Origin: Candidatus Beckwithbacteria bacterium GW2011_GWC1_49_16
Lineage (GTDB): Bacteria; Patescibacteriota; Microgenomatia; UBA1400; CG1-02-47-37
Direction of reading: 5' to 3'
NCBI GenBank assembly: GCA_001029675.1
Contig: CP011210.1
Span: 841,280-905,279, forward strand
Length of the DNA: 64,000 nucleotides
Below the pieces are notes generated by a model. It searched no databases. It was not told where the DNA came from and saw only the letters and a program-made list of their open reading frames with translations. Position 1 is the stretch's first letter, and every line of letters starts with the position of its first letter. The position numbers were made by a program, and so were the translations under genes. Shown here one piece after another: positions 1-41,922 of this stretch.

Positions 1-20
1 TCACACCCCGGGGGTGTGAT
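1..20. repeat. Palindromic repeat copy (TCACACCCCGGGGGTGTGAT), probably truncated by the window edge
   Basis: Near-perfect inverted repeat. Same family as the copies at 514-534, 19995-20015, 21447-21471 and 41364-41385. Confidence 0.7.
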
Positions 21-502
21 AATTCCTCCAGTGAATCCGGCAAATGGTCAATACCCTGGAATTCTTTGACCACTATTGATTTGATCTTGGATTTTATCTC
101 CGGTCGAAGGTTTGGGTAAGTCATTTCTTTCTCGCCGCCGATTGACTCGCAATCGTCTTCGATTAGAATGTCCGGCATGATCCGCTCGGCGACAGCCTTA
201 TATTCTTCACCCTTATTTCGAAAAACCAAGTTGTGGGCGTCGGGGAATTGATAGGTGTTTAAGACTTTTTTAATCTGGTCGATTTCCGCTTTACTCTGGC
301 GTGAGGTTAAGTAGTAAATTTCGGCTTCTTGTTCTTGCCAATTCTTAATTTTCTCAACCGCCCGGCCGGCCGGCAGGTAACTGGCAAAATCATAAACCGA
401 CTTTTCCTTAGCTTGAGACATTTTCACCCGTTCCTCCCGGCTCAAGTTTAACCCTGATTTAAACATCAACGCCGTGCCTTCGGTAAAAATCATGATCTTC
501 AT
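1..502 (-). CDS. Hypothetical protein, C-terminus runs off the window edge
   Basis: Not in the ORF track because it is partial. The reverse-complement ORF starts ATG at 502 (MKIMIFTEGTALMF...) and reads through position 1 with no stop. Its last codons (..SHPRGV) are encoded by the palindromic repeat. Confidence 0.45.
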   Translation of the reverse strand, partial: MKIMIFTEGTALMFKSGLNLSREERVKMSQAKEKSVYDFASYLPAGRAVEKIKNWQEQEAEIYYLTSRQSKAEIDQIKKVLNTYQFPDAHNLVFRNKGEEYKAVAERIMPDILIEDDCESIGGEKEMTYPNLRPEIKSKIKSIVVKEFQGIDHLPDSLEELSHPRGV

Positions 503-513
503 AGTCTTAGTCT

Positions 514-534
514 ATCACACCCCGGGGGTGTGAT
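514..534. repeat. Palindromic repeat copy (ATCACACCCC-G-GGGGTGTGAT)
   Basis: Perfect 10-bp arms around a central G. It lies between the ABC permease stop (538) and the start of the next gene (502). Confidence 0.75.
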
Positions 535-537
535 GAT

Positions 538-1317
538 TTAGCTTGAGGCAGACGAGTACTGGGTCAAAGCGTAGTGCCAAAACTTTAAGCTAAGCCACCA
601 GATAAAAACCGAGGCGGCTAAAACCCCCGCGATGGTTACCGGAGTCAAAAAGCCCAAAAGAGCTTTGGCGGGGAAAGTAAACACCAGGGCAATGGGAACA
701 ACAAAGGTTAAAAAAGCCCGGACTGACTCGACGTAGATGTCTATCGGCACCCGGCCCATGGAGGCAAGGTCTCTGAAAATCCAGATGGTGTGGTCGACCT
801 CGGTGGTAATCACCCCCACGGCGGCGACGGCAATGTGGATGGCGGTGACGATGATCACTGCCGCCAGCGACAAAAATGCAAAGCTTACCAGGTCAGGGGC
901 AGACACGCTGTTAAGCCGCCAACCCAAGGCGACGATCACCACCAGCAACAAGGGCAAATCTAAAAAGTCGGTGTGGGCGGTTAAGATTTGAAACAGCGGA
1001 TTTAGGGGTTTGGCTAATGTAAAGTCAAAAGAACCGGAAACTATTTCTTCCCTAAACCAGTAAATACCGCGGTAGAAAAACTGGCCGAAAAGATCAAAGA
1101 GGTTGTAAACCAAAAAGAAGATAATCACCTGATCCAAAGAATAACCGGCGATAGTGCCTAAGCGGTCTTTGAGGACAAAGAGGAAGGCTAAAAAGAAAAA
1201 GAAGCGGACAAACTTGCCGGCCAAAAAAAGAAACGACGACAATCTGGTAGCCAGAAGCGACTGGAGGGTGAGGGCGGAAGTTTTCAACCAGTATTTAGAA
1301 TAAGTTTTGAACCTCAT
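538..1317 (-). CDS. ABC-2 family transporter permease
   Basis: Multi-TM hydrophobic protein. Paralogous to 3126..3914 (shared C-terminal ..ALTQYSSASS / ..ALRHYTSASS). Adjacent to the ABC ATPase. Confidence 0.7.
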   Translation of the reverse strand: MRFKTYSKYWLKTSALTLQSLLATRLSSFLFLAGKFVRFFFFLAFLFVLKDRLGTIAGYSLDQVIIFFLVYNLFDLFGQFFYRGIYWFREEIVSGSFDFTLAKPLNPLFQILTAHTDFLDLPLLLVVIVALGWRLNSVSAPDLVSFAFLSLAAVIIVTAIHIAVAAVGVITTEVDHTIWIFRDLASMGRVPIDIYVESVRAFLTFVVPIALVFTFPAKALLGFLTPVTIAGVLAASVFIWWLSLKFWHYALTQYSSASS

Positions 1318-1320
1318 AGC

Positions 1321-2121
1321 TTAGCGGCCGTAGGCGCCGTAAATTTTTAAACCTTTGCGCCAAACGGCGCGACTCACCCGGTACAAAAGCACCAGCCAGA
1401 CGAGGTTGGCGGCAACCAAGCCGACAGCGCCGGCAAGGTCCACCCGGCCAAGATAAATCTGCATCGGCTGAAACAAGAAAAAGGCGGGCGGCAAAAGCCG
1501 GAAGAAGTTGTAGACGACGGGGGGGAAAATATCCAAAGGAAACAGTCCCCCGGCCAAAAACTCCAGGATCATAAAAATGAAAAAGCGCAAGGGCCAACTG
1601 TTGTGCTCGGGATACCAAAAGGCAAAAGAGCTGACCAGAAAAGAAAAAAGAAAATACAAGAGCATGGCCAAAATGACAGCGACGATAAAAATGGCGGCGG
1701 CGGGCGAGGAAGCCGGTGGCAAAAGGGGCGGGCGGAGAAGAAGGATAACCAGGGTTAACTCGAAGGTCATAAACAGCAGGTTTAAAAGTTTGTCGGAGAG
1801 GTCGCGGGCCAGCCAGTTTTTTAAGTAGCTAACCGGTTTAACCAAGTAGTTGTTAAGGTCACCGCTGGCGATTTCGACGCCGACGGTTTGGCTTCTTGAC
1901 GATAAAACGAAAGAGCGCAGGACAGAAGTGCCGATAACGTAGGTGAGCATGGCGGCCCGGCTGTAGCCAAAGAGTTGGTTGTTGTCAGCGTAAATGGCCA
2001 GCCAGAGAAAATAGACGGCTAAAAACTGGATCACGTGTCTGACCCGCCACATGATGAAGTTAAGGCGATAGACAAAGCCGTTTATCAGGCTGGTTTGAAA
2101 AATCTTGAGGTATTTGCCCAT
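1321..2121 (-). CDS. ABC-2 family transporter permease
   Basis: Multi-TM. Paralogous to 3915..4715 (..KIYGAYGR / ..KAYSAYGG tails). Confidence 0.7.
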   Translation of the reverse strand: MGKYLKIFQTSLINGFVYRLNFIMWRVRHVIQFLAVYFLWLAIYADNNQLFGYSRAAMLTYVIGTSVLRSFVLSSRSQTVGVEIASGDLNNYLVKPVSYLKNWLARDLSDKLLNLLFMTFELTLVILLLRPPLLPPASSPAAAIFIVAVILAMLLYFLFSFLVSSFAFWYPEHNSWPLRFFIFMILEFLAGGLFPLDIFPPVVYNFFRLLPPAFFLFQPMQIYLGRVDLAGAVGLVAANLVWLVLLYRVSRAVWRKGLKIYGAYGR

Positions 2122-3111: not shown

Positions 3112-3125
3112 AACAAATTATTCTA

Positions 3126-9703: not shown

Positions 9704-9774
9704 CGGGGATTAGTTTAACGGTAGAATGCGCGGCTGGGGGCCGTGCGGAGACAGTTCGACCCTGTCATCCCCGA
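9704..9774 (+). tRNA. tRNA-Pro (anticodon GGG)
   Basis: Hand-folded cloverleaf. Acceptor stem CGGGGAT/ATCCCCG is 7 bp perfect. U8 and A14 present. D-loop AACGGTA with G18-G19 and A21, D-stem of 4 pairs including 2 G-U. Anticodon stem CGCGG/CCGTG with loop CU-GGG-GG (U33, G37). T-arm GACAG-TTCGACC-CTGTC. C1-G72 plus A73 are proline identity elements. CCA is not encoded. Confidence 0.8.
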
Positions 9775-9776
9775 AA

Positions 9777-11705
9777 TTAGACTGATATATCAGTCCTTTT
9801 TCTAAGAGCAAGACCTTCTCGAATTAATTTATTGAGAAGGTCATTAACGGTTTTATCAACTTGTTGCCATACTTCTTCGTCAATTTCATTGGTGACTCCC
9901 GGATCGTGTCTTCTAAGTGATGCTTGAAAGACTTCGGCAAAGAGTTCTTCTTGCGACTGTAGCTCTGAAAATTCAATATCTTTTTTCCTTAAAAGGGAGA
10001 AAATGTGCCTTACTTTTTGTCTATCTTCAGAGGGATAATAACTAGTTATGAGTCCCTCAACCTCTTCGGGGTTATCCTCAACCATTTTAGTGATAACAAA
10101 TGGCAAAATTACTCTATTAAAATAGACCCCTGCCGGTTCAATTTTGAACATCCTTCTTTCTGGCGCTTTAAAAAGTTCGAGGTTATTCTCGATAGTATCA
10201 AGCATTCTCTTTTCGAATTCGTTCAACCTATAACCTGACTGATCTAAGTACTGTTTATATTCGTTTTGGTAAAAATCCTCGATCGAGGCGATGGGAGTAT
10301 CACTTTCCCCTTTGGCAAAAAGTCTATAGATCATAAGGTCGTCTAAGGGTTGAGAATAATACTTACTGGAGGCACCATAAAGTCTATAAAGGAAGTAAGT
10401 TAACTTGAAAAAAAGAGATTTTTCATTGACATCATTATCAGGAAACACAAATTCTGTGGCCGGGTAGTCGGTAATACCAGCTTCATTTATATCCTTGTCG
10501 GTTCTTTCTAAAAATTCAATTATGGATTCGTTGCTAAGATCTAGAGATGCAAATTTGCCTGACGGAGTAAAAAAAGTTTTCAGGTTTCTGGTGGGACGGA
10601 AGAGCTCAAGCATTTCTTCAAGGGCGACGGTGTACTTGACGACATCAACGTCTTTCTCAAGAAAAACGATCTTTTTGTGAAGCGAGTGGCCGAATTCGTG
10701 AAGTACGTATTCTTTCCAAACGGTCGGAAATTTCCTGAAACTTTCTATATTTGCTTCTCCTATCCCCAAAACAATCTGGTTTAAAAAGTCGTCGTACTCA
10801 CCCCAAGGATTGTCGCCACCTTCAAATACACCTAAATTCGAAGCTGCTCTTTCTAAGCGATATTCTTTGAGAATTTGTTTTATTTCTTCTTTCAGTTCTT
10901 CATCTTCGGTTGCGACATAAATATTAGCCTCTTTGGGCCTTTTTGGTGCAATGGGGCCTTCCCGAAATTTGATTATTTTTCTCTGCGAGAGACTCTTAAC
11001 TTTAAGATAATTAAGAAGCGTTCCTTGATCAAGGAGTCTGTAAAGAGGACTTTGCTGACGGATCGCGCCAATAGTAGCCAACGCACTGTTGTCATCCCCG
11101 TATCGATCTTCAGAAACAGACCAAACGTCCGCCCACTGGGCGTTAATCGAGAATATCTCTTCTCCTAAAAAGGGGTCGCGAGTATCATAAACGTTAGTGA
11201 TAGATGGATTTCTCAAAGCCTCTTCAAACTTTTCAGGGACATTCCAGTATTCTTCTCTAACCATTAAAAGGGCCCAAACGGCACTGCCAACTTCGTAAAA
11301 ATCATCTTCTATCATCGTTTTGGCTCGCGGGCTTAAATTGCCTTCATTTTTAAGATCGAGATAAACCTGCTTCAGCCTTTTTAACTGGGACATTGATTTT
11401 TCCGTATTGCTTTGCCATTTTTCCTCGTCAAAGGAAATTAGTGCCAGCTGATCTTTAAATTGATAAGGGATGAGACCAAGCTCTCTTTCAATCTGGGGCA
11501 TAAATTTTTCCGGCTCAAAATCTTCTACGTTTTCAAAAAATCTTGTTTCAGACCAGTTGATTCTTTCTCTGGGGGCTTCGTGAGGAAGAAATTTTTCTAA
11601 CTTAAGTAACCAGGGTATCGCGGCCAACTTCAGAACCTCTCTTCTTTTAAGATCAACTTGTGGCCTAGGCAGGTTACCTGTTTCTAATCCGCCTGAATCT
11701 TTCAT
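9777..11705 (-). CDS. Large hypothetical protein with HExxH zinc-metallopeptidase motif
   Basis: 642 aa. HEFGHSLH motif at about residue 330. No other recognisable domain. Confidence 0.4.
   Translation of the reverse strand: MKDSGGLETGNLPRPQVDLKRREVLKLAAIPWLLKLEKFLPHEAPRERINWSETRFFENVEDFEPEKFMPQIERELGLIPYQFKDQLALISFDEEKWQSNTEKSMSQLKRLKQVYLDLKNEGNLSPRAKTMIEDDFYEVGSAVWALLMVREEYWNVPEKFEEALRNPSITNVYDTRDPFLGEEIFSINAQWADVWSVSEDRYGDDNSALATIGAIRQQSPLYRLLDQGTLLNYLKVKSLSQRKIIKFREGPIAPKRPKEANIYVATEDEELKEEIKQILKEYRLERAASNLGVFEGGDNPWGEYDDFLNQIVLGIGEANIESFRKFPTVWKEYVLHEFGHSLHKKIVFLEKDVDVVKYTVALEEMLELFRPTRNLKTFFTPSGKFASLDLSNESIIEFLERTDKDINEAGITDYPATEFVFPDNDVNEKSLFFKLTYFLYRLYGASSKYYSQPLDDLMIYRLFAKGESDTPIASIEDFYQNEYKQYLDQSGYRLNEFEKRMLDTIENNLELFKAPERRMFKIEPAGVYFNRVILPFVITKMVEDNPEEVEGLITSYYPSEDRQKVRHIFSLLRKKDIEFSELQSQEELFAEVFQASLRRHDPGVTNEIDEEVWQQVDKTVNDLLNKLIREGLALRKRTDISV
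9780..9803 (+). terminator. Intrinsic terminator downstream of tRNA-Pro
   Basis: Perfect 16-nt palindrome GACTGATATATCAGTC followed by CTTTTTCT. It overlaps the last codons of the convergent minus-strand gene. Confidence 0.55.
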
Positions 11706-19722: not shown

Positions 19723-19759
19723 GCTTTGCCCAGGTGGCTGGGAATGGTAGGATAAAACC

Positions 19760-20014
19760 ATGAAACTTAAAGCGGGAGATAAGGCACCTGCGGCTGTACC
19801 CGGGAAGCCTGCGGTATTCGCGACAACTTTAGTCAATTAAAGCAGAAAAATGATTAAAAGTTACGGCGCCGACGGGGTGATTTTTGCCAGAAGAACCACT
19901 TTTGTGATCGACCCCGCCGGCAAAATCGCCAAAATCTACGACAAAGTCAAGCCTGACGAGCACGCGGGAGAGTTGATTGAGGATTTAAAAGTCTATCACA
20001 CACCGGGTGTGTGA
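19760..20014 (+). pseudogene. bcp: bcp (thiol peroxidase/peroxiredoxin Q) pseudogene with internal deletion
   Basis: N-terminal fragment MKLKAGDKAPA matches the Bcp N-terminus (MNPLKAGDIAPK), followed by a stop at 19838. The C-terminal fragment 19850-20014 (..SYGADGVIFARRTTFVIDPAGKIAKIY..) matches the Bcp C-terminus. The roughly 90-codon core that carries the catalytic Cys is missing. The fragment ends HTPGV-stop inside the palindromic repeat. Confidence 0.7.
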
Positions 20015-20025
20015 TTGGGGTGGGG
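19995..20025. repeat. Palindromic repeat copy (ATCACACACC-G-GGTGTGTGAT) plus GGGGTGGGG tract
   Basis: 10-bp inverted arms. A G4TG4 tract follows immediately, as at the 21447 copy. Confidence 0.75.
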
Positions 20026-20198
20026 CGGCTTTTTGGGCGGATTGAGTGTCGCTAATCGCCCGCATCAAAATGACGTCCTTGACATTTTTGGGCCTTAGCT
20101 TTTCTCCTTTTTCATCCATATGTCAATAATAGCATGTTAGCGGCAGGTGGCGGCTTGGGCATAGAAAAATAGCCTGTTTTTTGGTAAAATATAGGGGT

Positions 20199-20462
20199 AT
20201 GTATAATTGGTCGGTTGATGAGAAGGCTTTTAAAAAAAGAAATCCGGAAGGGTATCGGCTGTGGCGGCTGGTACAACTGATTAACTACGGCCTGGACGGC
20301 GAGAAACTCGACGAGGACGAAGTCAAAAAAGCCTGGCCGAAGATTAAAGATGATCTCGATCCGTATTCTCGGCGGGCTATAGAGTATTTATTATGGCAAA
20401 AAGCATACTCACTGCCAAGCAACGTGACTTTTTGGAATTGGCAGAAAAAGAACCTTCACTAG
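20199..20462 (+). CDS. Small hypothetical protein upstream of and overlapping the AbiEii-like gene
   Basis: ORF of about 87 aa (track 20181..20462). It overlaps the NTase start by 70 nt, so it is uncertain whether it is real. By position it could be a cognate antitoxin. Confidence 0.3.
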   Translation: MYNWSVDEKAFKKRNPEGYRLWRLVQLINYGLDGEKLDEDEVKKAWPKIKDDLDPYSRRAIEYLLWQKAYSLPSNVTFWNWQKKNLH

Positions 20463-21073
20463 TTAAGCGGTTTTATTTAACCGGCGGCACGGCTTTGGCG
20501 GAGTTTTACTTTCAACATCGGTTGTCGGAAGATATCGATCTTTTTTCCGAACAAGAAGTAAATCCCAAAGCGGCAGAGGCTTTTTTGAAAAAGGCGGCGG
20601 CAAACTTAAAGATTAAAAAAATTGTCAGACAGCAGTTTTTGGGACTTCATACCTATAAACTCCACTATAAAGATGGCGATTTTTTAAAGGTGGATTTTAA
20701 CTATTATCCGTTCCCCCGGATTGAAAAAGGAACGAGTTTTGGTAAATTGGAAGTTAGCAGCGTCTACGATATTGCCGTAAATAAGATTCATACCGTCGGC
20801 ATGAAGCCCAGGGCCAGAGACTATGTTGATTTGTATTTTATTTTTACCACCTCAAAATACAAACCGGAAAAATATTTACAGAGAATGCGGCTCGACAGCC
20901 AGGCAAAATTTGATTGGCCGTTGGAGGCAAAAAACTTGGCGGCGGGGTTTTTGCGGGTGAAAGACTTTTCTAAAACCGACCTGCCCAAAATGCTCAAACC
21001 CCTTGACCTTAAAGCCATGGAAAAGTTTTTTTTGCAGCTGGCCCGGGGTTTGAAAAAGGAAATTTTTAAATGA
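20393..21073 (+). CDS. Nucleotidyltransferase of the AbiEii/AbiGii toxin family
   Basis: FYLTGGTALAEFYF..RLSEDIDLF matches the AbiEii NTase signature (GGTAL...SxDIDL). Confidence 0.65.
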   Translation: MAKSILTAKQRDFLELAEKEPSLVKRFYLTGGTALAEFYFQHRLSEDIDLFSEQEVNPKAAEAFLKKAAANLKIKKIVRQQFLGLHTYKLHYKDGDFLKVDFNYYPFPRIEKGTSFGKLEVSSVYDIAVNKIHTVGMKPRARDYVDLYFIFTTSKYKPEKYLQRMRLDSQAKFDWPLEAKNLAAGFLRVKDFSKTDLPKMLKPLDLKAMEKFFLQLARGLKKEIFK

Positions 21074-21468
21074 CCACTGTAACCATTGCCAGCGATAAAA
21101 AAGACCAAGTGGTGGATATTAGCGACCGGGTGCAGGAGGTGGTGGATAAGGCTGGGGTGAAAGACGGCAGCGTTACCGTGTCTGTGGCCCACACCACCTG
21201 CGCCGTGACTACCGCTGACCTTGATCCCGGCACCGACGAGGACATGATGGAAGCTTTCCGGGCGATGGTGCCTAAGTTAAAATTCCGCCACCCGCATGAC
21301 CCCGAGCACGCGCCGGATCATATTTTGTCCAGCCTCATCGGCCCGTCGGTGACCGTGCCGGTGGCAAAAGGCAAACTGGTGTTAGGATCCTGGCAGAGAA
21401 TCGTTTTGGTCGAGTTTAACGGCCCCCGCCAAAGACACATCACCATCTATCACATACCGGGTGTGTGA
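21070..21468 (+). CDS. yjbQ: YjbQ family (UPF0047) protein
   Basis: VSVAHTTCAVT...PDHILSSLIGPSVTVPVAKGKLVLGSWQRIVLVEFNGPRQRHI aligns with E. coli YjbQ. ATGA overlap with the NTase. C-terminus ..YHIPGV-stop is encoded by the repeat. Confidence 0.75.
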   Translation: MTTVTIASDKKDQVVDISDRVQEVVDKAGVKDGSVTVSVAHTTCAVTTADLDPGTDEDMMEAFRAMVPKLKFRHPHDPEHAPDHILSSLIGPSVTVPVAKGKLVLGSWQRIVLVEFNGPRQRHITIYHIPGV

Positions 21469-21479
21469 TAGGGGTGGGG
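21447..21479. repeat. Palindromic repeat copy (CTATCACATACC-G-GGTGTGTGATAG) plus GGGGTGGGG tract
   Basis: 12-bp arms with one mismatch. It contains the YjbQ stop codon and is followed by G4TG4. Confidence 0.75.
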
Positions 21480-22154
21480 TTAGCGGCAGGTGTCGGCTTT
21501 GACGAAGCCGGCGGCTTGGGCTTCTTTCTCACTGCAAAACCAAGCCTCGCCGATGTCCAGCTCGACCACGGTCCAAATGTACTGGGCGCAGCCGGGATAG
21601 TAGTATTTTTTGACTTTGGTGGATTTGTCGATGTTGGCTTTGATGTTACAGCCGGGATTGGCTAAGTTCTCCTTTTGCCAGCATTTTTGACTGAAAACGC
21701 CCAAGTTGTTTTTTCGGGCAGAGTGGTTGGCGGCTTTGAGGGCTTCCCTTTGGGAGGTCTGGTCTGAGTGGTAGCGGACCCAACCTGAAGCCAGCATAGC
21801 CTGATTCACCAGTTCGTCCCCGACATAGATTAAAGCCATGGGCCGGCCGCGCTGGTCTAAGATTTTTTCCGAGACGACCACCGACTGGCCTTCGACTAAA
21901 CTGGTGAGCAAGTCCTTGGCTTCCTGCCCGCCGCAAAACTCGAGCTCGGGGGCGTCGAGGTGGCGGAGCCTCAAGCGGACTTTGCCGTCTAGCACAATGG
22001 TGTCGCCGTCGATGACGCCTAAAACCTTGATGGCGTCGCCGGAGACTTGGGGCTCACCGAGTAAAACCAAATTTAAAATCAGTGAAGGCACGGCGACGGC
22101 AAAACCTATCCAAGGCAGAAGCTTGGTGAAGTTTAGTCTAACTCTCTTTTTCAC
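21480..22154 (-). CDS. Secreted thermonuclease (SNase-like) with Cys-rich C-terminal domain
   Basis: N-terminal TM/signal. GVIDGDTIVLDGKVRLRLRHLDAPE is the staphylococcal-nuclease motif. C-terminal YYYPGC..WFCSEKEAQAAGF..C cysteine module. Confidence 0.75.
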   Translation of the reverse strand: MKKRVRLNFTKLLPWIGFAVAVPSLILNLVLLGEPQVSGDAIKVLGVIDGDTIVLDGKVRLRLRHLDAPELEFCGGQEAKDLLTSLVEGQSVVVSEKILDQRGRPMALIYVGDELVNQAMLASGWVRYHSDQTSQREALKAANHSARKNNLGVFSQKCWQKENLANPGCNIKANIDKSTKVKKYYYPGCAQYIWTVVELDIGEAWFCSEKEAQAAGFVKADTCR

Positions 22155-26092: not shown

Positions 26093-26214
26093 ACAAGGCG
26101 TTGACTGCTTCAGTGTAGCATGGAGTCAGTTTCTTGGGGGGGGCGTTGTGATGATATAGTTTGCACGAGATATTGGTAGTTGACCCAGACGAAATAGTCG
26201 GGTATTCTCGAGGT

Positions 26215-26850
26215 ATGAAAAAAGTAACTGCCCGGCAAAAAGAGTTGTTAAAGGTTGTTTACGACTATATTAAAACAACTGGTTATCCTCCGACCATAAA
26301 GGAGATGAGAGATAGTTTGAAGGTCACCTCTAATCAGTCTGTCATCGACCTACTAGAACACCTAGAAAATAAAAAGTTGATCAAGCGACAAGAAGGTGTA
26401 GCTAGAAGCATTGTGATTTTACCTTTTGGGTACGAAGCCATTGCTAAAACAGCCTTGGCTCCATTCCTGGGCATGAGTCACGCCGGATCCCCCATTGACG
26501 CTATACAAATAGATGGCGAGTGGCAAGAGCTTTCTAACGAGGCCGCTCAGCTTAAGGATAATGTTTTTTTGCTTAAAGTTTTGGGTGACTCGATGATAAA
26601 CGCAGGCATTGATAACGGTGACGTTGTTTTAGTCAGAGTGCAAAAGGAGTTTGTGTCCGGAGACATAGTACTGGCTGAGGTTGAAGGTGAATCAACAATT
26701 AAACGGTTTATGTCTGATGACACTCCTCCATTTATTTACCTAAAGCCTGAGAATCCAAAACATAAAGTAATTCCATTTAACGAAAGAACTAAGCTTAAGG
26801 GAAAAATAATCTCTATCTTAAAAGAGGGGTCCTGGAAGTCTATTAACTAA
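26215..26850 (+). CDS. lexA: LexA-like repressor (wHTH plus S24 peptidase)
   Basis: N-terminal LexA DNA-binding domain (ARQKELLKVVYDYIKTTGYPPTIKEMRDSL). Ala-Gly cleavage site (SHAGSP). Ser/Lys dyad (VLGDSM ... TIKRF). Stop is 1 nt before the methylase start. Confidence 0.8.
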   Translation: MKKVTARQKELLKVVYDYIKTTGYPPTIKEMRDSLKVTSNQSVIDLLEHLENKKLIKRQEGVARSIVILPFGYEAIAKTALAPFLGMSHAGSPIDAIQIDGEWQELSNEAAQLKDNVFLLKVLGDSMINAGIDNGDVVLVRVQKEFVSGDIVLAEVEGESTIKRFMSDDTPPFIYLKPENPKHKVIPFNERTKLKGKIISILKEGSWKSIN

Positions 26851-26851
26851 T

Positions 26852-28807
26852 ATGCCAACTAAAAAGCCCAATAAAGCTGAAGAAATTATCAAAAAGGTTT
26901 TTAAAGAGCCGGATATTGCCCATGGCCTTAAAGAGTTTGAAGACTTGGATTTGAAAACTATCCTTTATATCACCGAGGAAGAAAAAGGCAGATATTTTGT
27001 GAAAGATCTTAAATCCGGCAAAACAAGGCTGGTTTATGACGAGACCAAAAAAAAGGGCAAGCCAGAGGAGATTGTGCGCCAGCTTTGGCTTTACAAGCTC
27101 AACAAAATCTATGGCTATCCTTTTGAAAGGATTGAAGTAGAAAAAAGTATCCATTTCGGCAGAGAGATTAGAGCAAAAGCGGCTGACATTGTGATTACCA
27201 AAACAGACAAAATCACACCCTATATTATCGTTGAAGTAAAAAAGCCTGATGAGAAAAAAGGCATAGAACAGTTAAAGAGTTATCTATCTGCCGAGGGTAG
27301 CGAAATTGGCGTTTGGTCAAACGGGATAGAAAAGGTGGTGCTCTACCGCCCTTACCCTAAAGAATATGAAGACTCTTTGAGTGATATTCCCAGAGCAGAC
27401 CAAAAGATTGACGATTTATTCGAAGTTAGGCGCACTTGGCAGGAATTAAACCCTAAGTTTGACTTTGTCCATATTGTCAGAAGCATCGAAGAGGCGGCGC
27501 TGGCTGGTTCCGGGGCGAATGTATTTGAAGAGATTTTTAAAATTCTTTATGCCAAGCTATTTGACGAAAAACTGGCCCGGGATCAACGGAAAGATCAAGA
27601 GGTGTTGTTTAGAAAATATAAAGATCCGGAAAAAACTTATGAGGTGATTAACCAACTTTTTAAAAATGCTGCTAGGCAATGGCCGGATACTTTTGAGCTG
27701 TCTGACAAGATTAGGCTTTCTCCCCAGAGACTTAATGTTTGTGTGCCATTTTTAGAAAAAGTGCGTTTGTTTGAAGTGGGCCAAGGAGAACTGGAGATTA
27801 TCGATAGCGCTTTTGAGTACTTAATTACCGAGGTTTCCAAGGGTAAAAAAGGGCAGTATTTCACCCCCCGCCACGTAATTAAGATGTGTATCAAGATTGT
27901 GAACCCCAAAACAAGCGAATATGTGATTGATCCTGCCTGTGGCTCGGGAGGGTTTCTGCTTCACACCATGTATCATGCCTGGGAAGAATTACCGACCGAA
28001 GCGGCTAAAAAAGAGTACGCCGCCAAATATTTATACGGCATTGACTTTGACGATAACATGCGCCGGATTTCCCAAGCGCTGATGCTAATTGCCGGAGACG
28101 GCAAGCACCATATTTTCAAACGCAACTCGCTTGACAGTCGTGACTGGACCGGCTATGAAGCCGAAGAAGCCAGAGTAGAGTTTAAAAAACTGCTACACAA
28201 ATTTGATAATCCCGCTGATGACAAGGAAAATCAAAAAAGCTTTAGGCATTTGGATTTCGACATCCTGCTGACAAACCCACCGTTTGCCGGAGAGAATAAG
28301 GGCGACGCCGGACTTTTAAGACAATACGAATTGGCTAAAAGCGACGGTAAGCTAAAAAACAATGTCGATCGGCATATCCTATTTATCGAGCGATCGCTAG
28401 ACGCTGTCCGCCCTGGGGGCAGACTAGCGATAGTTTTACCCCAAGGGGTGCTTAACAATACCAATATGGCCTACATTCGCCAGTGGCTGTTTGATAAGGC
28501 CATAATTTTGGCGGTGGTCGGGCTTCACGTCAACACTTTTAAACCTCACGCGGGCACGAAAACGTCCGTGCTATTTTTGCAAAAGTGGCCCGAGGACAAA
28601 AAACACCTCAAAGACTACCCTATTTTTATGGCGGTTTCCAAAAAACCCGGCAAGGACAACTCCGGCGACTATGTTTATAAAAAAGACGATAAAGGCAACT
28701 TTTCCTACGACGTTAATGGTCGCAAGGTCCTGGATCACGACCTAGACGAAATTGCGGATAAGTTTATCGAGTTTGCTAAAAAGGAGGGTTTTAGTTTTTC
28801 GACATGA
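26852..28807 (+). CDS. Restriction-modification fusion: HsdR-N-type PD-(D/E)XK nuclease domain plus N6-adenine DNA methyltransferase (Type IIB/BcgI-A-like)
   Basis: Residues about 100-180: ADIVITKTD...PYIIVEVKKPD...GIEQLKSY...GVWSNG, equivalent to the HsdR N-terminal endonuclease motifs. MTase motif I DPACGSGGFL and motif IV LLTNPPFAG. Confidence 0.8.
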   Translation: MPTKKPNKAEEIIKKVFKEPDIAHGLKEFEDLDLKTILYITEEEKGRYFVKDLKSGKTRLVYDETKKKGKPEEIVRQLWLYKLNKIYGYPFERIEVEKSIHFGREIRAKAADIVITKTDKITPYIIVEVKKPDEKKGIEQLKSYLSAEGSEIGVWSNGIEKVVLYRPYPKEYEDSLSDIPRADQKIDDLFEVRRTWQELNPKFDFVHIVRSIEEAALAGSGANVFEEIFKILYAKLFDEKLARDQRKDQEVLFRKYKDPEKTYEVINQLFKNAARQWPDTFELSDKIRLSPQRLNVCVPFLEKVRLFEVGQGELEIIDSAFEYLITEVSKGKKGQYFTPRHVIKMCIKIVNPKTSEYVIDPACGSGGFLLHTMYHAWEELPTEAAKKEYAAKYLYGIDFDDNMRRISQALMLIAGDGKHHIFKRNSLDSRDWTGYEAEEARVEFKKLLHKFDNPADDKENQKSFRHLDFDILLTNPPFAGENKGDAGLLRQYELAKSDGKLKNNVDRHILFIERSLDAVRPGGRLAIVLPQGVLNNTNMAYIRQWLFDKAIILAVVGLHVNTFKPHAGTKTSVLFLQKWPEDKKHLKDYPIFMAVSKKPGKDNSGDYVYKKDDKGNFSYDVNGRKVLDHDLDEIADKFIEFAKKEGFSFST

Positions 28808-30549
28808 GATACAAAAAATTTCTAATTCAAAATTATAAAGCCATCAAAAAAGCAACCATAGAATTGACAGACGATGGTCTTGTCTTGCTACTAGGAATAA
28901 ACGAGTCTGGAAAGACGAGTGTTCTACTGGCTATAGAGTCATTTGATCATACAAATGACCCTACCGATGAGAATCTGAAACTAAAACGGTATAAGCAGAT
29001 AAGAAATAAAAGAGAGATTACGGGTGTTAGCGAGGCCAAAATAACAGCCGAGATACAAATGGAGAAAAACGACCAAAAGAGGATCAAAGAAACGCTTTTA
29101 ACAGATGGTTTTTTAGACAAGGATCGAGAAAGAGAATTTCAAGAGCTCCTTAAGATAGTAGGTGTGATAAAGATATGCAGAAAATTTGTTTATCAAGATG
29201 CAGAGTTTAATCAAGTTGTCTATGAACTTTTGGATAACGGTAAAAAATTCTTAAGCCTCTTAAAAGGTGAAATTAATGAGGATGCAGTTTGCAAGTCTAT
29301 TCTAAAAATCTCCCCATCAGTTCAGTATTTTGAAGATTTCAAAGACCAGATACCAGAATTTATTAGTCCTGTTCCAGGCGCACAGTATTATGATTTAGAT
29401 TGGGTCAATACACTGGAAGGTCTTTTCTATCATGCGGACCCAAAGCTGTCGATATCAGCCTTTGAGGCAATCAAAGATGATGTTGCTAGAAAAACCTTAG
29501 AAAGAAGGGTAAACAACAAATTAAATAAACAATTCACTCAGCGCTGGAATAAATTAAAAGGCGTAAAAACTATTCATCAGGCAGACCTTATTTATCTAAA
29601 GACAGAACAGCTTTTTACCTTTCAAATAGTAGGGGCTGATAGGGCAACAGTTTTTTCTGTTGATGAAAGAAGTAAGGGGGCCTTGTGGTATTTCACTTTT
29701 CTTTTAAAAACTGAGTTTAGGAAACGTAAACTGAGAGCACAAACTGGAAAGACTTTATACCTAATAGATGAGCCTGGTTCCAACTTGCACTCATCGGCTC
29801 AGACAAATATGAGAGAGGATTTTAAAACTCTGGCTAGCGACTCTAATGTTATATACACAACTCACAACCAGTATCTTATTGATACAACTAACCTTTCAAG
29901 CACCTATATCACTGAAACTTCTGGAGGCGTGATCAAAGCTACTAAGTATAGCCAGTATTTACAAGGACGCAGTGTTAAGACTTCTTACTTCCAGCCACTA
30001 CTGGATGCAATTAAAGTACAACCTTTTTCGCTAGAAATTCCATGGGAAAAAACATTAATCTGTGAAGGAATATATGACTACATTGCTTACTCCATAGCTT
30101 TTGAAGATTTACTTGGTAAAAAGCTGGGTTTCTCCATTATTCCGGGAGAAGGTGCTTCTAGTCTTTCACCTCTCATATCTCTGAGTATAGCCTGGGGTTC
30201 AAAGTTTTTGGTGTTGCTCGATAGAGATGAAGAGGGGGTGGAACAAGCTGAAAGGTACTCTGGTAATTTTAAAATTTTCAAAGATAAAATCTTAACTTTA
30301 GGTGATATTGCCAAATTGGCAAAACAGAATTTTGAAGTGGAAGACCTTTTTTCTGTCCGAGATAAAATGAAACTTGCTACTTTGGCTGGAGTGTCCTTGG
30401 TCAAACCTCCAACGAAGGGGTCTTTTGACCAAATTTTGGCTACCATATTTCTCTCACAACCTTTAAGGAGAAAGGTTCAAGACAATTTGGAAAAGAGCAC
30501 AAAAAAAACATTTGAAGGAATTTACAGACATTTAAACTCTCTTTATTAA
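28804..30549 (+). CDS. OLD-family ATP-dependent endonuclease (ABC-type ATPase plus Toprim)
   Basis: Walker A LGINESGKTS, Walker B LYLIDEPGSNLH, H-loop TTHNQ. C-terminal Toprim: TLICEGIYDYIAY (catalytic Glu) and FLVLLDRDEEG (DxD). ATGA overlap with the upstream gene. Confidence 0.75.
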   Translation: MRYKKFLIQNYKAIKKATIELTDDGLVLLLGINESGKTSVLLAIESFDHTNDPTDENLKLKRYKQIRNKREITGVSEAKITAEIQMEKNDQKRIKETLLTDGFLDKDREREFQELLKIVGVIKICRKFVYQDAEFNQVVYELLDNGKKFLSLLKGEINEDAVCKSILKISPSVQYFEDFKDQIPEFISPVPGAQYYDLDWVNTLEGLFYHADPKLSISAFEAIKDDVARKTLERRVNNKLNKQFTQRWNKLKGVKTIHQADLIYLKTEQLFTFQIVGADRATVFSVDERSKGALWYFTFLLKTEFRKRKLRAQTGKTLYLIDEPGSNLHSSAQTNMREDFKTLASDSNVIYTTHNQYLIDTTNLSSTYITETSGGVIKATKYSQYLQGRSVKTSYFQPLLDAIKVQPFSLEIPWEKTLICEGIYDYIAYSIAFEDLLGKKLGFSIIPGEGASSLSPLISLSIAWGSKFLVLLDRDEEGVEQAERYSGNFKIFKDKILTLGDIAKLAKQNFEVEDLFSVRDKMKLATLAGVSLVKPPTKGSFDQILATIFLSQPLRRKVQDNLEKSTKKTFEGIYRHLNSLY

Positions 30550-30556
30550 AATTGCC

Positions 30557-31957
30557 ATGGATTTTTCAATAATCCAAAAATCTCAACTTGAAGGACCGAA
30601 TCGGCTGGATGCGGAATATTTTCAACCACAATATTTGGAATTAGAGAAGAATATTTTACAAACAGATACACTTATAAAGTGGGAAGAAATAGATGGTAAA
30701 TTCATTACAGGTCCGTTTGGTTCGGAATTTAATGTTGAAAACTACGATGAGAACAGCCAACACAGATATGTTAGGGGTAAGGATGTAAAACCCTTCTTTT
30801 TATCGACGGATGATAATGTTTACATACCTGAAAAAGATTTTGTAAGACTTAAAAAGTACTCTCTTGAAGAAGATGATATTTTAATATCTGTGGTTGGGAC
30901 TTTGGGAAATGCAACAGTTATAGACAGCTCTAACTTACCTGCCATATTCAGTAGCAAAAGCACTACATTTAGATCCAGAAATATTAATGCGTATTATTTA
31001 TTAGCATATTTAAACTCAAAATATGGTCAGGGGCTTTTGTTAAGATGCTCAAGAGGTCAGGTACAGACAGGGCTAAATATAGTCGACTTGAAAACTTTAC
31101 CTATTTACTTGCCTTCTACAGAAAAGCAAGACGCCGTGGCCTCTTTAGTTAAAAAATCTTACGATTTGCTAGGGCAATCAAAATTTAGGTATGTGGAAGC
31201 AGAAGACTTACTTTTTGAGGAGTTGGGATTGAAAGATTTTGAGGTTCCGGAAGATTTGACTTGGGTGGTAGGTTATTCGGAAGTTGAGAAGGAAAATCGT
31301 GTTGATGCCGAGTACTTTCAACCAAAGTACGAAAAAATTGTTTCAACAATAAAATCATATAGTAAGGGTTGGGACTTTTTAAAAAATTTAACAACTTTGA
31401 TTGGCCATCCTTCAAACCCTCCATATGCTCGCGCGGATTCAATTGATAAAACTTTTATCATCACTCAAAAACATCTTTCAGACTATTTTCCTTTAGATAA
31501 TTTTTGGGAAGATAAAAAAGCACTATATACAACTAATGACTTTATAAATAAAAATAAAGAATTTCTTTTAAGGGAAAACGATATTCTTCTTTATTCAGTC
31601 GGAGCCTATATAGGTAAGACAAACATCTATAATTCAAATACAAAAGCTACAATTGGAAGCTTTTTAACTTTAGTTCGGGCAAAACAAGACATTATCAACC
31701 CGTTTTACCTACTAGTTTTCTTGAATTCTGAAATTGGACACCTTCTTACACGTAGAAATTCAAAAGGATTGGCCCAGCAATACATTTACCCCTATGATAC
31801 AAAAAACATTCCAGTTCCAAAAATTGATAATGGTGTTCAAGAAGAAATTGGGAAGTTTATCAAAAAGGGTTACGAGGCGAGGAAGAAATCAAAAGAGTTA
31901 CTTGAAGAAGCTAAAAGGAAAGTTGAAGAAATGATAGACAAGGGCAGTAAAAACTAA
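30557..31957 (+). CDS. hsdS: Restriction-modification specificity subunit HsdS with two TRDs
   Basis: Two-fold internal repeat with conserved LDAEYFQPQY / VDAEYFQPKY blocks at residues about 18 and about 251. 466 aa. Confidence 0.8.
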   Translation: MDFSIIQKSQLEGPNRLDAEYFQPQYLELEKNILQTDTLIKWEEIDGKFITGPFGSEFNVENYDENSQHRYVRGKDVKPFFLSTDDNVYIPEKDFVRLKKYSLEEDDILISVVGTLGNATVIDSSNLPAIFSSKSTTFRSRNINAYYLLAYLNSKYGQGLLLRCSRGQVQTGLNIVDLKTLPIYLPSTEKQDAVASLVKKSYDLLGQSKFRYVEAEDLLFEELGLKDFEVPEDLTWVVGYSEVEKENRVDAEYFQPKYEKIVSTIKSYSKGWDFLKNLTTLIGHPSNPPYARADSIDKTFIITQKHLSDYFPLDNFWEDKKALYTTNDFINKNKEFLLRENDILLYSVGAYIGKTNIYNSNTKATIGSFLTLVRAKQDIINPFYLLVFLNSEIGHLLTRRNSKGLAQQYIYPYDTKNIPVPKIDNGVQEEIGKFIKKGYEARKKSKELLEEAKRKVEEMIDKGSKN

Positions 31958-37691: not shown

Positions 37692-37988
37692 ATGAAAGTA
37701 CTTTTTGATCCAAGGGTTAAAAAATTTCTTAAGAATATTTCTAAGCAAGAACGGGCTAAGGTGACTGAATACGTAGATCTTTTTAAGGAGTACGGCTTTG
37801 CTCTAGGGCAAAAGTATTTGAAAAAGGTGGATAATAAAATATGGGAGTTGCGCCCGGGCAAGATGAGAGTGTTTTTGTTCAAATACTCCGCTAACCATAT
37901 TGTTATTCACGCGATGTTTAAAAAGTCACAGAAAATTACTAAGGAAACAAAACAGTTATTAGCAAGTAGACTTAAGGAATATTTATGA
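37692..37988 (+). CDS. Type II toxin, Gp49-like/HigB (RelE/ParE superfamily)
   Basis: IWELRPGKMRVFLFKYSANHIVIHAMFKKSQKITKETKQ matches the phage Gp49-like toxin family. ATGA overlap with the downstream XRE gene. Confidence 0.65.
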   Translation: MKVLFDPRVKKFLKNISKQERAKVTEYVDLFKEYGFALGQKYLKKVDNKIWELRPGKMRVFLFKYSANHIVIHAMFKKSQKITKETKQLLASRLKEYL

Positions 37989-38284
37989 AGAAAAAAATAG
38001 ATATTAGCAAGCTGACAACCTTTGAGGAACTTAAAGTTGAATGGATGAAAGATCCTGGCTTTAGGCGTGAATATCAAAAAGTCCAGCCTCATTACCAGCT
38101 GGCGCGGCAAATTATTGGCGCTAGGTTAAAAAAGAAAATGACCCAAGCGGAACTGGCAAAAAAGGCTAAAACGGGCCAGGCGGTAATTTCGCGGCTTGAG
38201 GGGATGAACGCCCAGCCGACGATTTCGCTTTTGCAAAGAATCGCCCAGGCCTTGAACACCAAAATTGAGCTGACCATTCGCTGA
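37985..38284 (+). CDS. XRE-family HTH antitoxin (HigA-like)
   Basis: [21 protein letters not shown] helix-turn-helix. Confidence 0.65.
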
Positions 38285-38715: not shown

Positions 38716-39578
38716 AAGATAAGTATAACGCCACCTGGGTGTCGTATTCATCGATTTCGGACTGGTTGCGCTGCCCTCGGGCCTACTACTTTAAAAACGT
38801 CTATAAAAACCCCAAGACGGGTAGGAAAATCAGCCTGATGGCCCCGCCTTTGGCTTTGGGCCAGGCGGTGCACGAGGTGATCGAGGGCTTGTCGACCTTA
38901 GCGGTGGATAAACGCTTTGACACGCCGTTGGTTACCAGGCTGGAACAAGCCTGGAAGAAAATTTCCGGCAAGCGGGGTGGGTTTTCTGATCGTGACCAGG
39001 AAGCAAGATTTTTGGACCGGGCCAAGGTCATGCTTAAGCGAGTGAACGACCATCCGGGGCCTTTGAAAAATTTGGCGGTAAAAATTAAAACCGAGGGCGG
39101 GATGACGCCGTATTTTTGGCTGTCGGAAGCTGACGAGATCATTTTGGTGGGCAGGATCGACTGGCTGGAATATTTGGCGGACAAGGAAGCAGTGCACATC
39201 ATCGACTTTAAGACGGGTAAGACAAAACAGAAAGACGGCTCGCTCCAGCTGCCGATCTACTTGCTTCTGGCCGAAAACCTGCAAGAGCGGCCGGTGAAAA
39301 AAGTAAGTTATTGGTATATTGAACAGAGTAACGCTCCGGAAGAGCAAAAAATGCCGGTGAAAGAAAAAGCCGAACAAGACGTCTTAAAGGTAGCCAAGGA
39401 AATTAGTCTGGCTAAAAAACTTAATCGCTTTGTCTGCCCCCACGGCGGCTGCCCGGCCTGCCGCGAAATGGAGGCGGTAACTGAAGGTAAAGCCGAGATG
39501 GTGGGGGTGGACGAGATCGGCCGGGAGGTGTATGTTTTGGAGCACGGCAAAGCGGCTTTTGAAAGCGAGCTGCTATAA
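38712..39578 (+). CDS. Cas4/RecB-like PD-(D/E)XK nuclease with Fe-S cluster
   Basis: N-terminal Cys (WLRCPRAYY) plus C-terminal CPHGGCPAC, which is the Cas4 C-x(n)-C-x4-C-x2-C arrangement. Core [17 protein letters not shown]. Confidence 0.55.
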
Positions 39579-39590
39579 TAGAAAAAGCTC

Positions 39591-40679: not shown

Positions 40680-40680
40680 A

Positions 40681-41064
40681 ATGGTGACGATGAAGCTTAG
40701 TCAACAAAAATGCGTCCCTTGCCGCGGCGGCGTGCCGCCGATGAAGCGGAGTTTGATTAAAGAGTATATTAAAAAGGTAAATCCGGGCTGGCGGGTGAAA
40801 CACGTGGAGCTACCTGGGGCAAAGGACGGTGAGGGGGCCAAGATTGTGCGGCGGTTCACTTTCAAAAACTTTGCGGCGGCTTTGGAGTTTGTCAACCAGG
40901 TGGGGGCGATTGCTGAAGGTGAGGACCACCACCCGAATATTCACTTAACTAACTGGAACAAGGTCAAGTTAGTTTTATTCACCCATAAAATTAACGGGCT
41001 TCACGCTAATGACTTTATCCTGGCGGCCAAAATTGATAAACTGGCTCATGACTTTGAAGGATAG
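40681..41064 (+). CDS. Pterin-4a-carbinolamine dehydratase
   Basis: GEDHHPNIHL is the PCD signature [EDKH]-x3-H-[HN]-P. Start assumed at MVTMKL (40681). Confidence 0.7.
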   Translation: MVTMKLSQQKCVPCRGGVPPMKRSLIKEYIKKVNPGWRVKHVELPGAKDGEGAKIVRRFTFKNFAAALEFVNQVGAIAEGEDHHPNIHLTNWNKVKLVLFTHKINGLHANDFILAAKIDKLAHDFEG

Positions 41065-41350
41065 AGTTTATAAACTGACCAGCCGCATCCCTAAAGGCAA
41101 AGTGACCACTTATGGCGCTATCGCCAAAAAACTTGGCGTCGGCAGTGCCCGGCCGATCGGCAATATCCTCCACGTTAATCCTTACGCCCCCAAAGTCCCC
41201 TGCCACCGGGTGGTGTCTTCAACCGGTAGGCTCGCCAAAAACTTTGGCGCTCCCGGCAAAATCGCCACCCACGCTAAGTTGTTACGCGCCGAAGGCGTTA
41301 CCGTCACCAACAATCGCGTGAGCTTAAAAAAATATTTATGGACACCCTAG
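41048..41350 (+). CDS. ogt: Methylated-DNA--protein-cysteine methyltransferase DNA-binding domain (Ogt/MGMT)
   Basis: VPCHRVV active-site motif with TYGAIAKKLG..ARPIGN. Start assumed at MTLKDRVY (41048). Confidence 0.75.
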   Translation: MTLKDRVYKLTSRIPKGKVTTYGAIAKKLGVGSARPIGNILHVNPYAPKVPCHRVVSSTGRLAKNFGAPGKIATHAKLLRAEGVTVTNNRVSLKKYLWTP

Positions 41351-41357
41351 CTTAATT

Positions 41358-41385
41358 CAGGCTTCACACACCGGGTGCGTGATAG
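41358..41385. repeat. Palindromic repeat copy (TCACACACC-GGG-TGCGTGATAG) with CAGGCTTCACAC leader
   Basis: Imperfect member of the repeat family. It shares the 14-nt direct repeat CAGGCTTCACAC(A/C)CC with 41907-41922. Confidence 0.65.
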
Positions 41386-41386
41386 T

Positions 41387-41893
41387 TTAGGTAATTTCAA
41401 CAATTTGGGCGGAGTTGGTTTTGGTGTCGTAGATAGCGTAAGTGGCGCGAACGTAACCTTTGCCCGGCACGATGCCACAAACAGCACCAGGGTTGACCAG
41501 TAAAGATTGGCCAATTTTTTTGTTGACTACCTGGTGGGTGTGACCAAAGAAAACGGCATCGTAGTCGCCGGTTTTGGCCAAAAGCTCTCCCAATTTAGGA
41601 TAGTGACAGAAAGCAATCTTCTTTTTATCGAGTTCGACCTCGCCAAACTCTTTGGTTAAAGGAGTCCAGGTAAAATTATCACCCCCTCTTTGTAACATGG
41701 CAATGTGGTCTTCGTCGACATTGCCCAAGCAAGCGTAAATCGGCAGGCCAATTTGCCCCATCGCCCCGGCTGTAAAAGGAGCGCACATATCCCCTAAAAA
41801 GATAATGGCTTCCACCTTAGCTTTTATTTGTTGGGCAATTTTTTCCAGATTACCAATGTGGTCGTGAATGTCAGATAAAATGGCAATTTTCAT
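41387..41893 (-). CDS. Metallophosphoesterase (YfcE/MPP family)
   Basis: MKIAILSDIHD, GDMCAPF, FGHTHQ motifs. Confidence 0.8.
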   Translation of the reverse strand: MKIAILSDIHDHIGNLEKIAQQIKAKVEAIIFLGDMCAPFTAGAMGQIGLPIYACLGNVDEDHIAMLQRGGDNFTWTPLTKEFGEVELDKKKIAFCHYPKLGELLAKTGDYDAVFFGHTHQVVNKKIGQSLLVNPGAVCGIVPGKGYVRATYAIYDTKTNSAQIVEIT

Positions 41894-41906
41894 TGGTTAC
41901 ATTATA

Positions 41907-41922
41907 CAGGCTTCACACCCCG
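41907..41922. repeat. Half-copy of the palindromic repeat (CAGGCTTCACACCCCG)
   Basis: Direct repeat of 41358-41373. It supplies the ..GV-stop (GGGGTGTGA on the minus strand) of the 644-aa ORF. Confidence 0.6.

Follow-up and report, generated by a model that had tools for sequence, protein, structure and literature searches.

The DNA stretch analysed here (the window) comprises 64 kb of the genome of Candidatus Beckwithbacteria bacterium GW2011_GWC1_49_16, corresponding to approximately positions 124-188 kb of a 260-kb groundwater contig (PRJNA268031), and contains a family of short palindromes. Based on the repeat and its hairpin, its linkage to a transposase gene in other genomes, its preference for gene 3' ends and the repeat origin of protein tails, we propose that the palindrome very probably constitutes a repetitive extragenic palindrome (REP) family of this genome, with a REP-associated tyrosine transposase (RAYT) as the cognate enzyme type.

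Palindrome copies in the window

Copies were sought with the core TCACACNCCGGGNGTGTGA, the palindrome also being written TCACACNCCSGGNGTGTGA as a search pattern, allowing up to 3 mismatches and taking the chance level from dinucleotide shuffles. Five sites match in the window, where 0.03 are expected. Their core reads TCACAC(A/C)CCGGG(G/T)GTGTGA, and a sixth, decayed copy accompanies them:

1-21: REP copy 1; core 1-19, a perfect match TCACACCCCGGGGGTGTGA; within the final ~15 codons of the 175-aa edge open reading frame (ORF)
512-536: REP copy 2; core 515-533, a perfect match
19993-20025: REP copy 3; core 19996-20014, perfect, with an ACCGGGT centre; GGGGTGGGG tail at 20017-20025; gives YHTPGV-stop to the bcp remnant
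21447-21479: REP copy 4; core 21450-21468, one arm mismatch (TCACAT); GGGGTGGGG tail at 21471-21479
41358-41385: REP copy 5; core 41364-41382, one arm mismatch (GCGTGA), weak hairpin
41906-41934: REP copy 6, decayed; ACAGGCT-TCACACCCCG-acaatc-GCCTGT; gives GV-stop to the 644-aa ORF

The original prediction, made from the letters of the window, had listed five full copies and the GGGGTGGGG sequence behind two of them, all of which are confirmed at these positions; its longer consensus matches three of the five core sites. The half copy that it had placed at 41907-41922 is real, and is better described as a full copy that has decayed: its left arm persists along with an outer stem of 6 bp, and other sequence stands in place of the right arm.

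The copies lie close to gene borders. A PIN-domain gene, convergent to the edge ORF, stops directly past copy 1, outside the window. Copy 2 follows the stop of an ABC-2 permease gene on the minus strand (538-1317) by 4 nt and precedes the start of the edge ORF by 12 nt, and copy 5 lies between the convergent ends of a 113-aa DNA_binding_1 gene and a metallophosphoesterase gene. A seventh copy, 9 kb past the left edge of the window (L082 20064-20082), equals copy 4 over 34 nt, including the TCACAT mismatch and the GGGGTGGGGTTAG tail. The overall density is approximately one copy per 12 kb. All window copies are singlets at least 500 bp apart, and hence do not form the inverted doublets known as REPINs; doublets of the palindrome are present in some other loci (L013, L025, L097 and L114).

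Anatomy of the repeat and its hairpin

The repeat unit is a near-perfect palindrome of ~23-25 nt, (C)TA-TCACAC(A/C)CC-S-GG(G/T)GTGTGA-TA(G). Its outer limits follow from the flanking bases of 93 copies, in which A occupies position -1 in 74 copies and T position +1 in 75, T is found at -2 in 53 and A at +2 in 50, and position -3 is mixed, so that the unit is delimited as (C)TA-core-TA(G). As single-stranded DNA (ssDNA), intact copies fold into hairpins of 9-11 bp with a 3-nt loop (-7.8 to -9.6 kcal/mol, z -3.0 to -4.7), copy 2 for instance giving a 9-bp hairpin of -8.7 kcal/mol (z -4.7); the two mutated copies fold poorly. About one sixth of the copies have an additional copy-specific complementary flank of 5-9 bp, and the flanks extend the stem by 2.26 on average, compared to 1.08 for shuffled partners (shuffle maximum 1.46). 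These variable, stem-extending flanks argue for recognition of a hairpin rather than of a duplex.

This last point bears on an alternative explanation, namely that the palindrome is the operator of a dimeric DNA-binding regulator or the uptake signal of a competence system, as a perfect dyad with arms of 9-11 bp, found in many operators, and the multiple copies per genome might suggest. We consider this extremely unlikely: apart from the evidence for hairpin recognition, the copies are found at 3' ends rather than at promoters, the site is linked to RAYT genes as described below, and a density of one per 12 kb is far below that of known uptake sequences such as those of Neisseria and Haemophilus. 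Neither a regulator co-varying with the site nor a concentration of copies upstream of a regulon was seen.

Elsewhere the palindrome occurs in more elaborate settings. Some Microgenomates copies have a G/T-rich tail on one side, which in the source genome is GGGGTGGGG. In one metagenome-assembled genome (MAG), JAHJSD (L022, L027, L042, L051, L058, L060 and L068), and in L043, the core forms one element of an extended composite repeat, GTGTGATAGGTTGACACMTCGGGAATTATTTCGATCCTGGA...TCCAGGATCGTGATTATCC; with its TTGACA box and second hairpin, this repeat is reminiscent of a bacterial interspersed mosaic element (BIME). A second hairpin family, TCACAC-CTTTAAG-GTGTGA-AGGCT, with the same arms, a different loop and a fixed tail, was observed in Amesbacteria (L021 6826, L032 6305 and 7012, L057 6530), and its tail, AGGCT/AGCCT, also flanks the window copies near 41360 and 41906.

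A transposase gene beside the palindrome in other genomes

A scan for the exact core, using one genome per species, returned at least 80 loci, and these 80 were used for ORF comparison. The majority belong to Patescibacteria (Amesbacteria, Beckwithbacteria, Gottesmanbacteria, Saccharibacteria, Peregrinibacteria, Azambacteria and unclassified members), four Omnitrophota MAGs are among them, and several genomes contribute ten or more loci each. Two Streptomyces hits and one high-GC hit fall in coding sequence and look like chance matches. The REP is also found in MAGs titled 'uncultured Gammaproteobacteria/Pseudomonadales' (L043, also L012, L019, L028, L034 and others). As L043 has three syntenic genes in common with the Patescibacteria loci L042 and L045, these taxonomic labels are probably wrong, and Gammaproteobacteria was dropped as a carrier phylum.

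In an all-against-all comparison of the ORFs of the 80 loci, the sole protein family recurring beside the palindrome is one of 220-240 aa, encoded exactly between pairs of copies (n=8). All eight of these ~225-aa proteins exceed the Pfam gathering score of PF01797 (Y1_Tnp), and they match the NCBIfam model NF047646 'REP-associated tyrosine transposase' (REP_Tyr_transpos) with E values of 1e-11 to 1e-17. The HUH motif (MPNHFHLL) and the tyrosine motif RY(V/I)HLNP are invariant among them; in the RAYT alignment (A1), the invariant residues H89, H91, Y149, H151 and N153 align to the same region of the solved structure 4er8. A single RAYT sequence had no match among solved structures, whereas a six-member RAYT profile found E. 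coli TnpA-REP (4er8) as the best solved relative (E 8e-4), ahead of ISDra2 TnpA. Judged by these motifs and matches, the protein is a RAYT-type Y1/HUH transposase.

The TCACAC palindrome is present on both sides of six of the eight RAYT genes, approximately 5-25 nt from start and stop; the RAYT of L066 has a different palindrome on both sides, and at L080 a hairpin was observed upstream only. Two copies of the TCACAC type also enclose the gene of the Beckwithbacteria RAYT P0138 (locus L167), and seven genomes (L001, L009, L014, L022, L045, L077 and L167) have a RAYT flanked on both sides by this palindrome. The cognate enzyme type of the repeat is hence identified through guilt-by-association in related genomes, in agreement with one of the two possibilities raised originally, a REP-like element with an IS200/IS605-type REP-associated transposase.

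Gene ends and protein tails

Among 96 copies from all loci, 86 are not deep within long ORFs. Where the nearest gene boundary is within 30 nt, it is a 3' end for 36 copies and a 5' end for 15 (p 0.005), which shows a preference of the repeat for gene 3' ends.

A preference of this kind would also be expected if the palindrome were primarily a host RNA element, such as a factor-dependent terminator lacking a U-tract or a stabiliser of mRNA 3' ends, kept by selection and not by transposition. The stable hairpin, the enrichment within 30 nt of gene 3' ends and the location of several copies between convergent genes fit such a role, and E. coli REPs are known to protect mRNA 3' ends from exonucleases (cited in PMC12320835). 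However, terminators need no fixed stem sequence, yet the 19-nt core is identical across phyla, and RAYT genes are bracketed at their 5' and 3' sides alike. An Rfam scan of the window gave no match at the copies, the sole hit being a tRNA (9704-9774), and a TTTT run within 10 nt on either strand accompanies just 9 of 96 copies, so that the U-tract of an intrinsic terminator is lacking and the repeat is, as predicted, not a classical terminator. We therefore judge a primary RNA role to be unlikely; as a secondary use, it could coexist with the REP explanation.

The position of copies at 3' ends has consequences for the encoded proteins. One frame of the palindrome per strand encodes (Y/H)-H-T-P-G-V-TGA-TAG, and approximately a quarter of the copies extend over the final codons of an ORF. 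Of the ORFs with 80 codons or more that run into a copy, 13 terminate at the TGA of the palindrome (including a SecF, a RAYT gene and the window YjbQ), 13 read through and stop within 60 nt, and 10 hold the copy further inside. The stop-giving frame is thus used 13 versus 13 times where 1:2 is expected, a weak excess on crude ORF calls. The ..HTPGV-stop tail terminates unrelated ORFs, as this SecF and this RAYT gene illustrate. In the window, the genes concerned are the following:

1-502, minus strand: edge ORF, 175 aa in full; its frame through REP copy 1 has no stop (..LSHPRGV..), and the ORF terminates 26 nt outside the window
19757-20014, plus strand: bcp pseudogene; ~26 N-terminal codons (MKLKAGDKAP..), then a stop; the middle of the gene is missing
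21070-21468, plus strand: yjbQ (UPF0047), ending ..ITIYHIPGV-stop; the last 6 codons (YHIPGV) and the stop are REP copy 4
41913-43847, minus strand: 644-aa ORF without a Pfam family, ending ..AIVGV-stop in the decayed REP copy 6

The window YjbQ, which is identical to UX85_C0001G0173 of Candidatus Beckwithbacteria bacterium GW2011_GWB1_47_15, provides the clearest view of such a tail. Its conserved domain ends at residue 126, solved homologues align just to residue 126-128 of 132, and a PGV C-terminus occurs in none of the 115 listed more distant YjbQ homologues (66% identity or less). Two Rifle-site assemblies hold a strain variant (L165/L166 480-500, corresponding to window 21447-21458) whose REP left arm differs at two bases (CTATCAC to CTAACGC); these substitutions create a TAA, and YjbQ ends ..ITI-stop after 126 aa. 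Judged by the domain end, the homologues and this variant, the tail is repeat-derived, as had been suspected, and dispensable. The 126-aa allele was considered as an empty site and rejected, as it contains the same REP with two point changes; the CTAACGC variants are evidence of ongoing decay of this copy.

The bcp remnant is terminated in the same manner. Its C-terminal ORF (19850-20014) comprises 54 codons and ends ..LKVYHTPGV-stop, the last 6 codons and the stop lying in copy 3, and the alignment to the Bcp structure PDB 3drn covers residues 4-47 only. The ORF is what remains of the C-terminal part of a pseudogene that has lost an internal segment.

Four ORFs had been predicted to end inside copies. 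This is the case for YjbQ, the bcp remnant and the 644-aa ORF, whereas the edge ORF crosses its copy in a different frame, its stop lying 26 nt outside the window. The accompanying idea that the repeat donates Pro-Gly-Val-stop codons is accurate for these three ORFs, but the process looks passive, given that as many ORFs read through as end at the TGA, among 100-odd copies. Hence, gene ends inside copies look like a passive outcome of insertion at 3' ends.

Proposed mechanism and evidence against it

We propose that the family may have spread as follows. By analogy with E. coli TnpA-REP and the TnpA of IS200/IS605, the RAYT would bind the hairpin on ssDNA, for example at replication forks, and would cut and rejoin the DNA beside it, seeding copies around the chromosome. 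Copies would survive where they cause little harm, which in tightly packed genomes would mean the short stretches next to gene 3' ends. If a copy inserted into the final codons in the H-T-P-G-V-TGA-TAG frame, it would replace the protein tail by ..HTPGV and end the ORF; in either of the other frames, the ORF would run on and stop slightly later. Effects on the host, such as stabilisation of mRNA 3' ends and recombination between copies, are possible.

Several results weigh against assigning the palindrome to a REP/RAYT system. The Pfam tables, which covered the window and 10 kb on each side (84 kb), contain no RAYT or Y1 transposase, and none of the best 120 relatives in two RAYT protein searches is assigned to the contig of the source genome. 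A comparison of eight RAYTs to the six frames of the window, by tblastn and a hidden Markov model, likewise gave nothing better than E 0.3. Against NF047646, the eight proteins score less than the 80 bits set as its curated cut-off. Described REPs are defined by a GT[AG]G guide tetranucleotide located 0-2 nt 5' of the hairpin foot (PMC6006769), and this guide is absent here; atypical REPs have been described for RAYT subclass 2.6 (PMC6006769). No empty-site polymorphism was found, the shorter YjbQ allele still having the repeat. The position and ORF-end statistics use crude ORF calls in the loci. Finally, across copies of all loci, the central base (CCGGG or CCCGG) shows no association with local GC skew (Fisher p 1.0). 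The central asymmetric base is oriented alike in 6/6 full copies of the 84 kb (CCGGG on the window plus strand), and this co-orientation is left uninterpreted because of the missing link to GC skew elsewhere.

The search for a recombinase or TnpA gene suggested originally hence had a divided outcome, as neither is present in the 84 kb and a RAYT lies beside the palindrome in other genomes. As the copies are partly decayed and no RAYT was found, the family may be orphaned in the source genome, a fossil population.

Bracketed units and REP-linked rearrangement

The original prediction also proposed an integron attC-like or dif-like site that delimits cassettes, in which case a tyrosine recombinase would exchange the bracketed blocks. 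Copies do pairwise flank three short units, at 21-502, 20016-21446 and 41387-41893, and this description is correct; CAGGCTTCACAC(A/C)CCG is present at both sides of the metallophosphoesterase gene, and the AbiEii-YjbQ block (20016-21446) has direct-repeat borders reminiscent of an insertion or duplication join. Nevertheless, we find the recombination-site explanation very unlikely. No tyrosine recombinase or integrase domain was called in the Pfam tables of the window and 10 kb on each side, and the protein co-occurring with the site elsewhere is a Y1 HUH transposase. The bracketed genes are on both strands, i.e. they are not co-oriented promoterless cassettes. The attC motifs R''/R' (RYYYAAC..GTTRRRY) are absent from the 25-nt unit, and its 9-bp arms around a 1-nt centre differ from the 28-bp dif site, in which a 6-bp spacer separates 11-bp XerC/XerD arms. 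The variable gene content between strains that cassettes would imply is not seen either: neighbours were read in 24 contigs at each of four positions, and the genes are essentially alike, in the same order, in 24/24 at each, with no variation in block content. Integron attC sites and the pdif modules of Acinetobacter are, like the present repeat, imperfect palindromes that bracket small gene units; the differences are the lack of a linked IntI or an Xer-dependent architecture, of conserved R/L boxes and a 6-bp spacer, cassette content for which no variation was seen, and a Y1 transposase rather than a tyrosine recombinase as partner protein.

The borders of the 1.45-kb AbiEii-YjbQ block deserve separate mention. 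They consist of two direct repeats, the first being the REP plus GGGGTGGGG (34 nt, 94% identity, 19992-20025 versus 21446-21479) and the second 21 nt of the 3' end of the SNase gene (95% identity, 20136-20156 versus 21479-21499), which belong to the following feature:

20136-20160 (compared with 21479-21521): duplicate of the SNase 3' gene end (GTTAGCGGCAGGTGGCGGCTT; 95% identity to 21479-21499)

This arrangement points to an insertion or a duplication that was joined at a REP. REP-mediated recombination would account for it, as would, more speculatively, a RAYT mobilisation of the segment between two REPs.

Extending the REP/RAYT interpretation, the ~225-aa RAYTs could be a distinct, undescribed subclass dedicated to symmetric hairpins without a GTAG guide and with a CACC...GGTG apex, for which pairs of REPs mobilise passenger genes in the manner of IS200/IS605 ends. 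We regard this as a tentative and rather doubtful proposal. If true, the REP-bracketed units of the window would be real RAYT-moved cassettes, with the AbiEii-YjbQ block as the clearest case, and ..HTPGV would be a lineage-wide, repeat-born tail affecting termination or stability.

The wider RAYT clade

A scan of metagenomes with the RAYT profile yielded 80 further RAYT loci, and in approximately 24 of these an identical hairpin occurs on either side of the gene. Its sequence is specific to the lineage, with the CACC...GGTG apex kept in many cases, e.g. TTCCACCTCTAAGGTGGAA, CACGGGTTGAACCCGTG and ATGCACCCCAGGGGTGCAT. A hairpin shared by both sides of the gene and varying by lineage is the standard REP/RAYT arrangement, and REP sequence is known to co-vary with RAYT lineage (PMC6006769, PMC5581495). 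The clade comprises at least 7167 relatives at E <= 1e-10 (8000 candidates scored), and the named relatives and fetched loci are mostly from groundwater Patescibacteria and Omnitrophota.

The gene order SecF-RAYT-CCA-adding enzyme recurs in three Beckwithbacteria-like genomes (L045 5450-8000, L167 9081-12785 and L168 7674-10599), and in an Omnitrophota MAG (L001 315-2455) the RAYT also adjoins the CCA-enzyme gene. This conserved locus fits vertical inheritance, in agreement with the description of RAYTs as vertically inherited and domesticated (PMC5581495). At this shared locus, the REP type of L167 is not that of L168, though their RAYTs are 63% identical. In a rough neighbour-joining tree, whose sampling is biased by collection, RAYTs of the TCACAC type are scattered among RAYTs with other hairpins.

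Comparison with known systems

The REP/RAYT systems of Proteobacteria, i.e. E. coli REP/BIME with YafM (4er8) and the REPINs of Pseudomonas (Nunvar 2010; Bertels & Rainey 2011, PMC3116915; Quentin 2018, PMC6006769), are the closest parallel. They share with the family described here short dispersed hairpin repeats, largely extragenic and close to 3' ends, one Y1/HUH transposase gene (HUH and YxHxNP motifs) bracketed by the same hairpin, hairpin sequences that differ between RAYT lineages, and a RAYT at a conserved chromosomal locus (PMC5581495), here between SecF and the CCA enzyme. The family here differs in lacking GT[AG]G 5' of the hairpin and in having a (C)TA flank on both sides, and as it is an almost perfect palindrome, the orientation of the element is nearly undefined. 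Furthermore, the window copies are singlets in contrast to the doublets of Pseudomonas REPINs, the RAYT of ~225 aa has a C-terminal extension of ~60 aa and scores below the NCBIfam cut-off, and about a quarter of the copies overlap the last codons of ORFs. Whereas described REPs are called species-specific, an identical 19-nt core occurs in Patescibacteria and Omnitrophota, and the RAYTs beside it are just 38-45% identical to one RAYT taken as reference.

IS200/IS605 elements (TnpA of IS608 and ISDra2) belong to the same transposase fold family (PF01797), with ISDra2 TnpA as the second-best solved match, and likewise have subterminal hairpins flanking the transposase gene; an ssDNA mechanism would be common to both. 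In contrast to these elements, the hairpins here are dispersed alone, far from any transposase gene, no TnpB partner was seen beside the RAYT genes that were inspected, complete elements in several identical copies were not observed, and the RAYT profile matches TnpA-REP better than the TnpA of insertion sequences.

Palindromes in or against coding sequence are not without precedent. Rickettsia palindromic elements reportedly measure 100-150 bp and reside in-frame within genes, adding internal peptide segments, and E. coli REPs are said to lie close to stop codons. As in the present case, protein ends or translation termination are altered; compared to the Rickettsia elements, the unit here is 25 nt and replaces just the last 2-6 residues.

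We found no description of a RAYT or REP in bacteria of the Candidate Phyla Radiation (CPR) in the literature. The system is thus one of a known kind, in a lineage where no description was found, and atypical in lacking the GTAG guide, in its symmetric unit, in a core shared across phyla and in its longer RAYT. It extends REP/RAYT, studied almost only in Proteobacteria and Cyanobacteria, to reduced CPR genomes and Omnitrophota, and it accounts for a class of odd ..HTPGV C-termini and for small annotation artefacts, namely truncated or extended ORFs and 'cassette-like' units, without revealing a new kind of recombination or cassette system. The symmetric hairpin without a GTAG guide offers a compact test case for hairpin recognition by RAYTs, and the copies provide natural markers with which strains of these bacteria can be typed and recombination joins in their genomes recognised.

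Genomic surroundings

According to its Pfam content, the 84-kb region consists of ordinary housekeeping genes, several toxin-antitoxin pairs and one restriction-modification system. In the window, positions 26161-31957 encode a LexA-like repressor and, after it, an N6_Mtase/Eco57I-type enzyme together with an AAA ATPase and a specificity subunit (Methylase_S); the GC content of this defence or restriction island is 0.34-0.41, below that of its surroundings. Toxin-antitoxin pairs of the Gp49/HTH_3 (HigB/HigA-like) type are found in the window at 37692-38284 and, directly beside the RAYT, in L167 at 10772-11378. Approximately 1.2-2.6 kb past the right end of the window (L083 6329-7728), a bAvd-like gene adjoins a reverse transcriptase gene (RVT_1); the pair looks like a diversity-generating retroelement and is located between the genes of ribosomal protein S7 and EF-G, three genes upstream of the latter.

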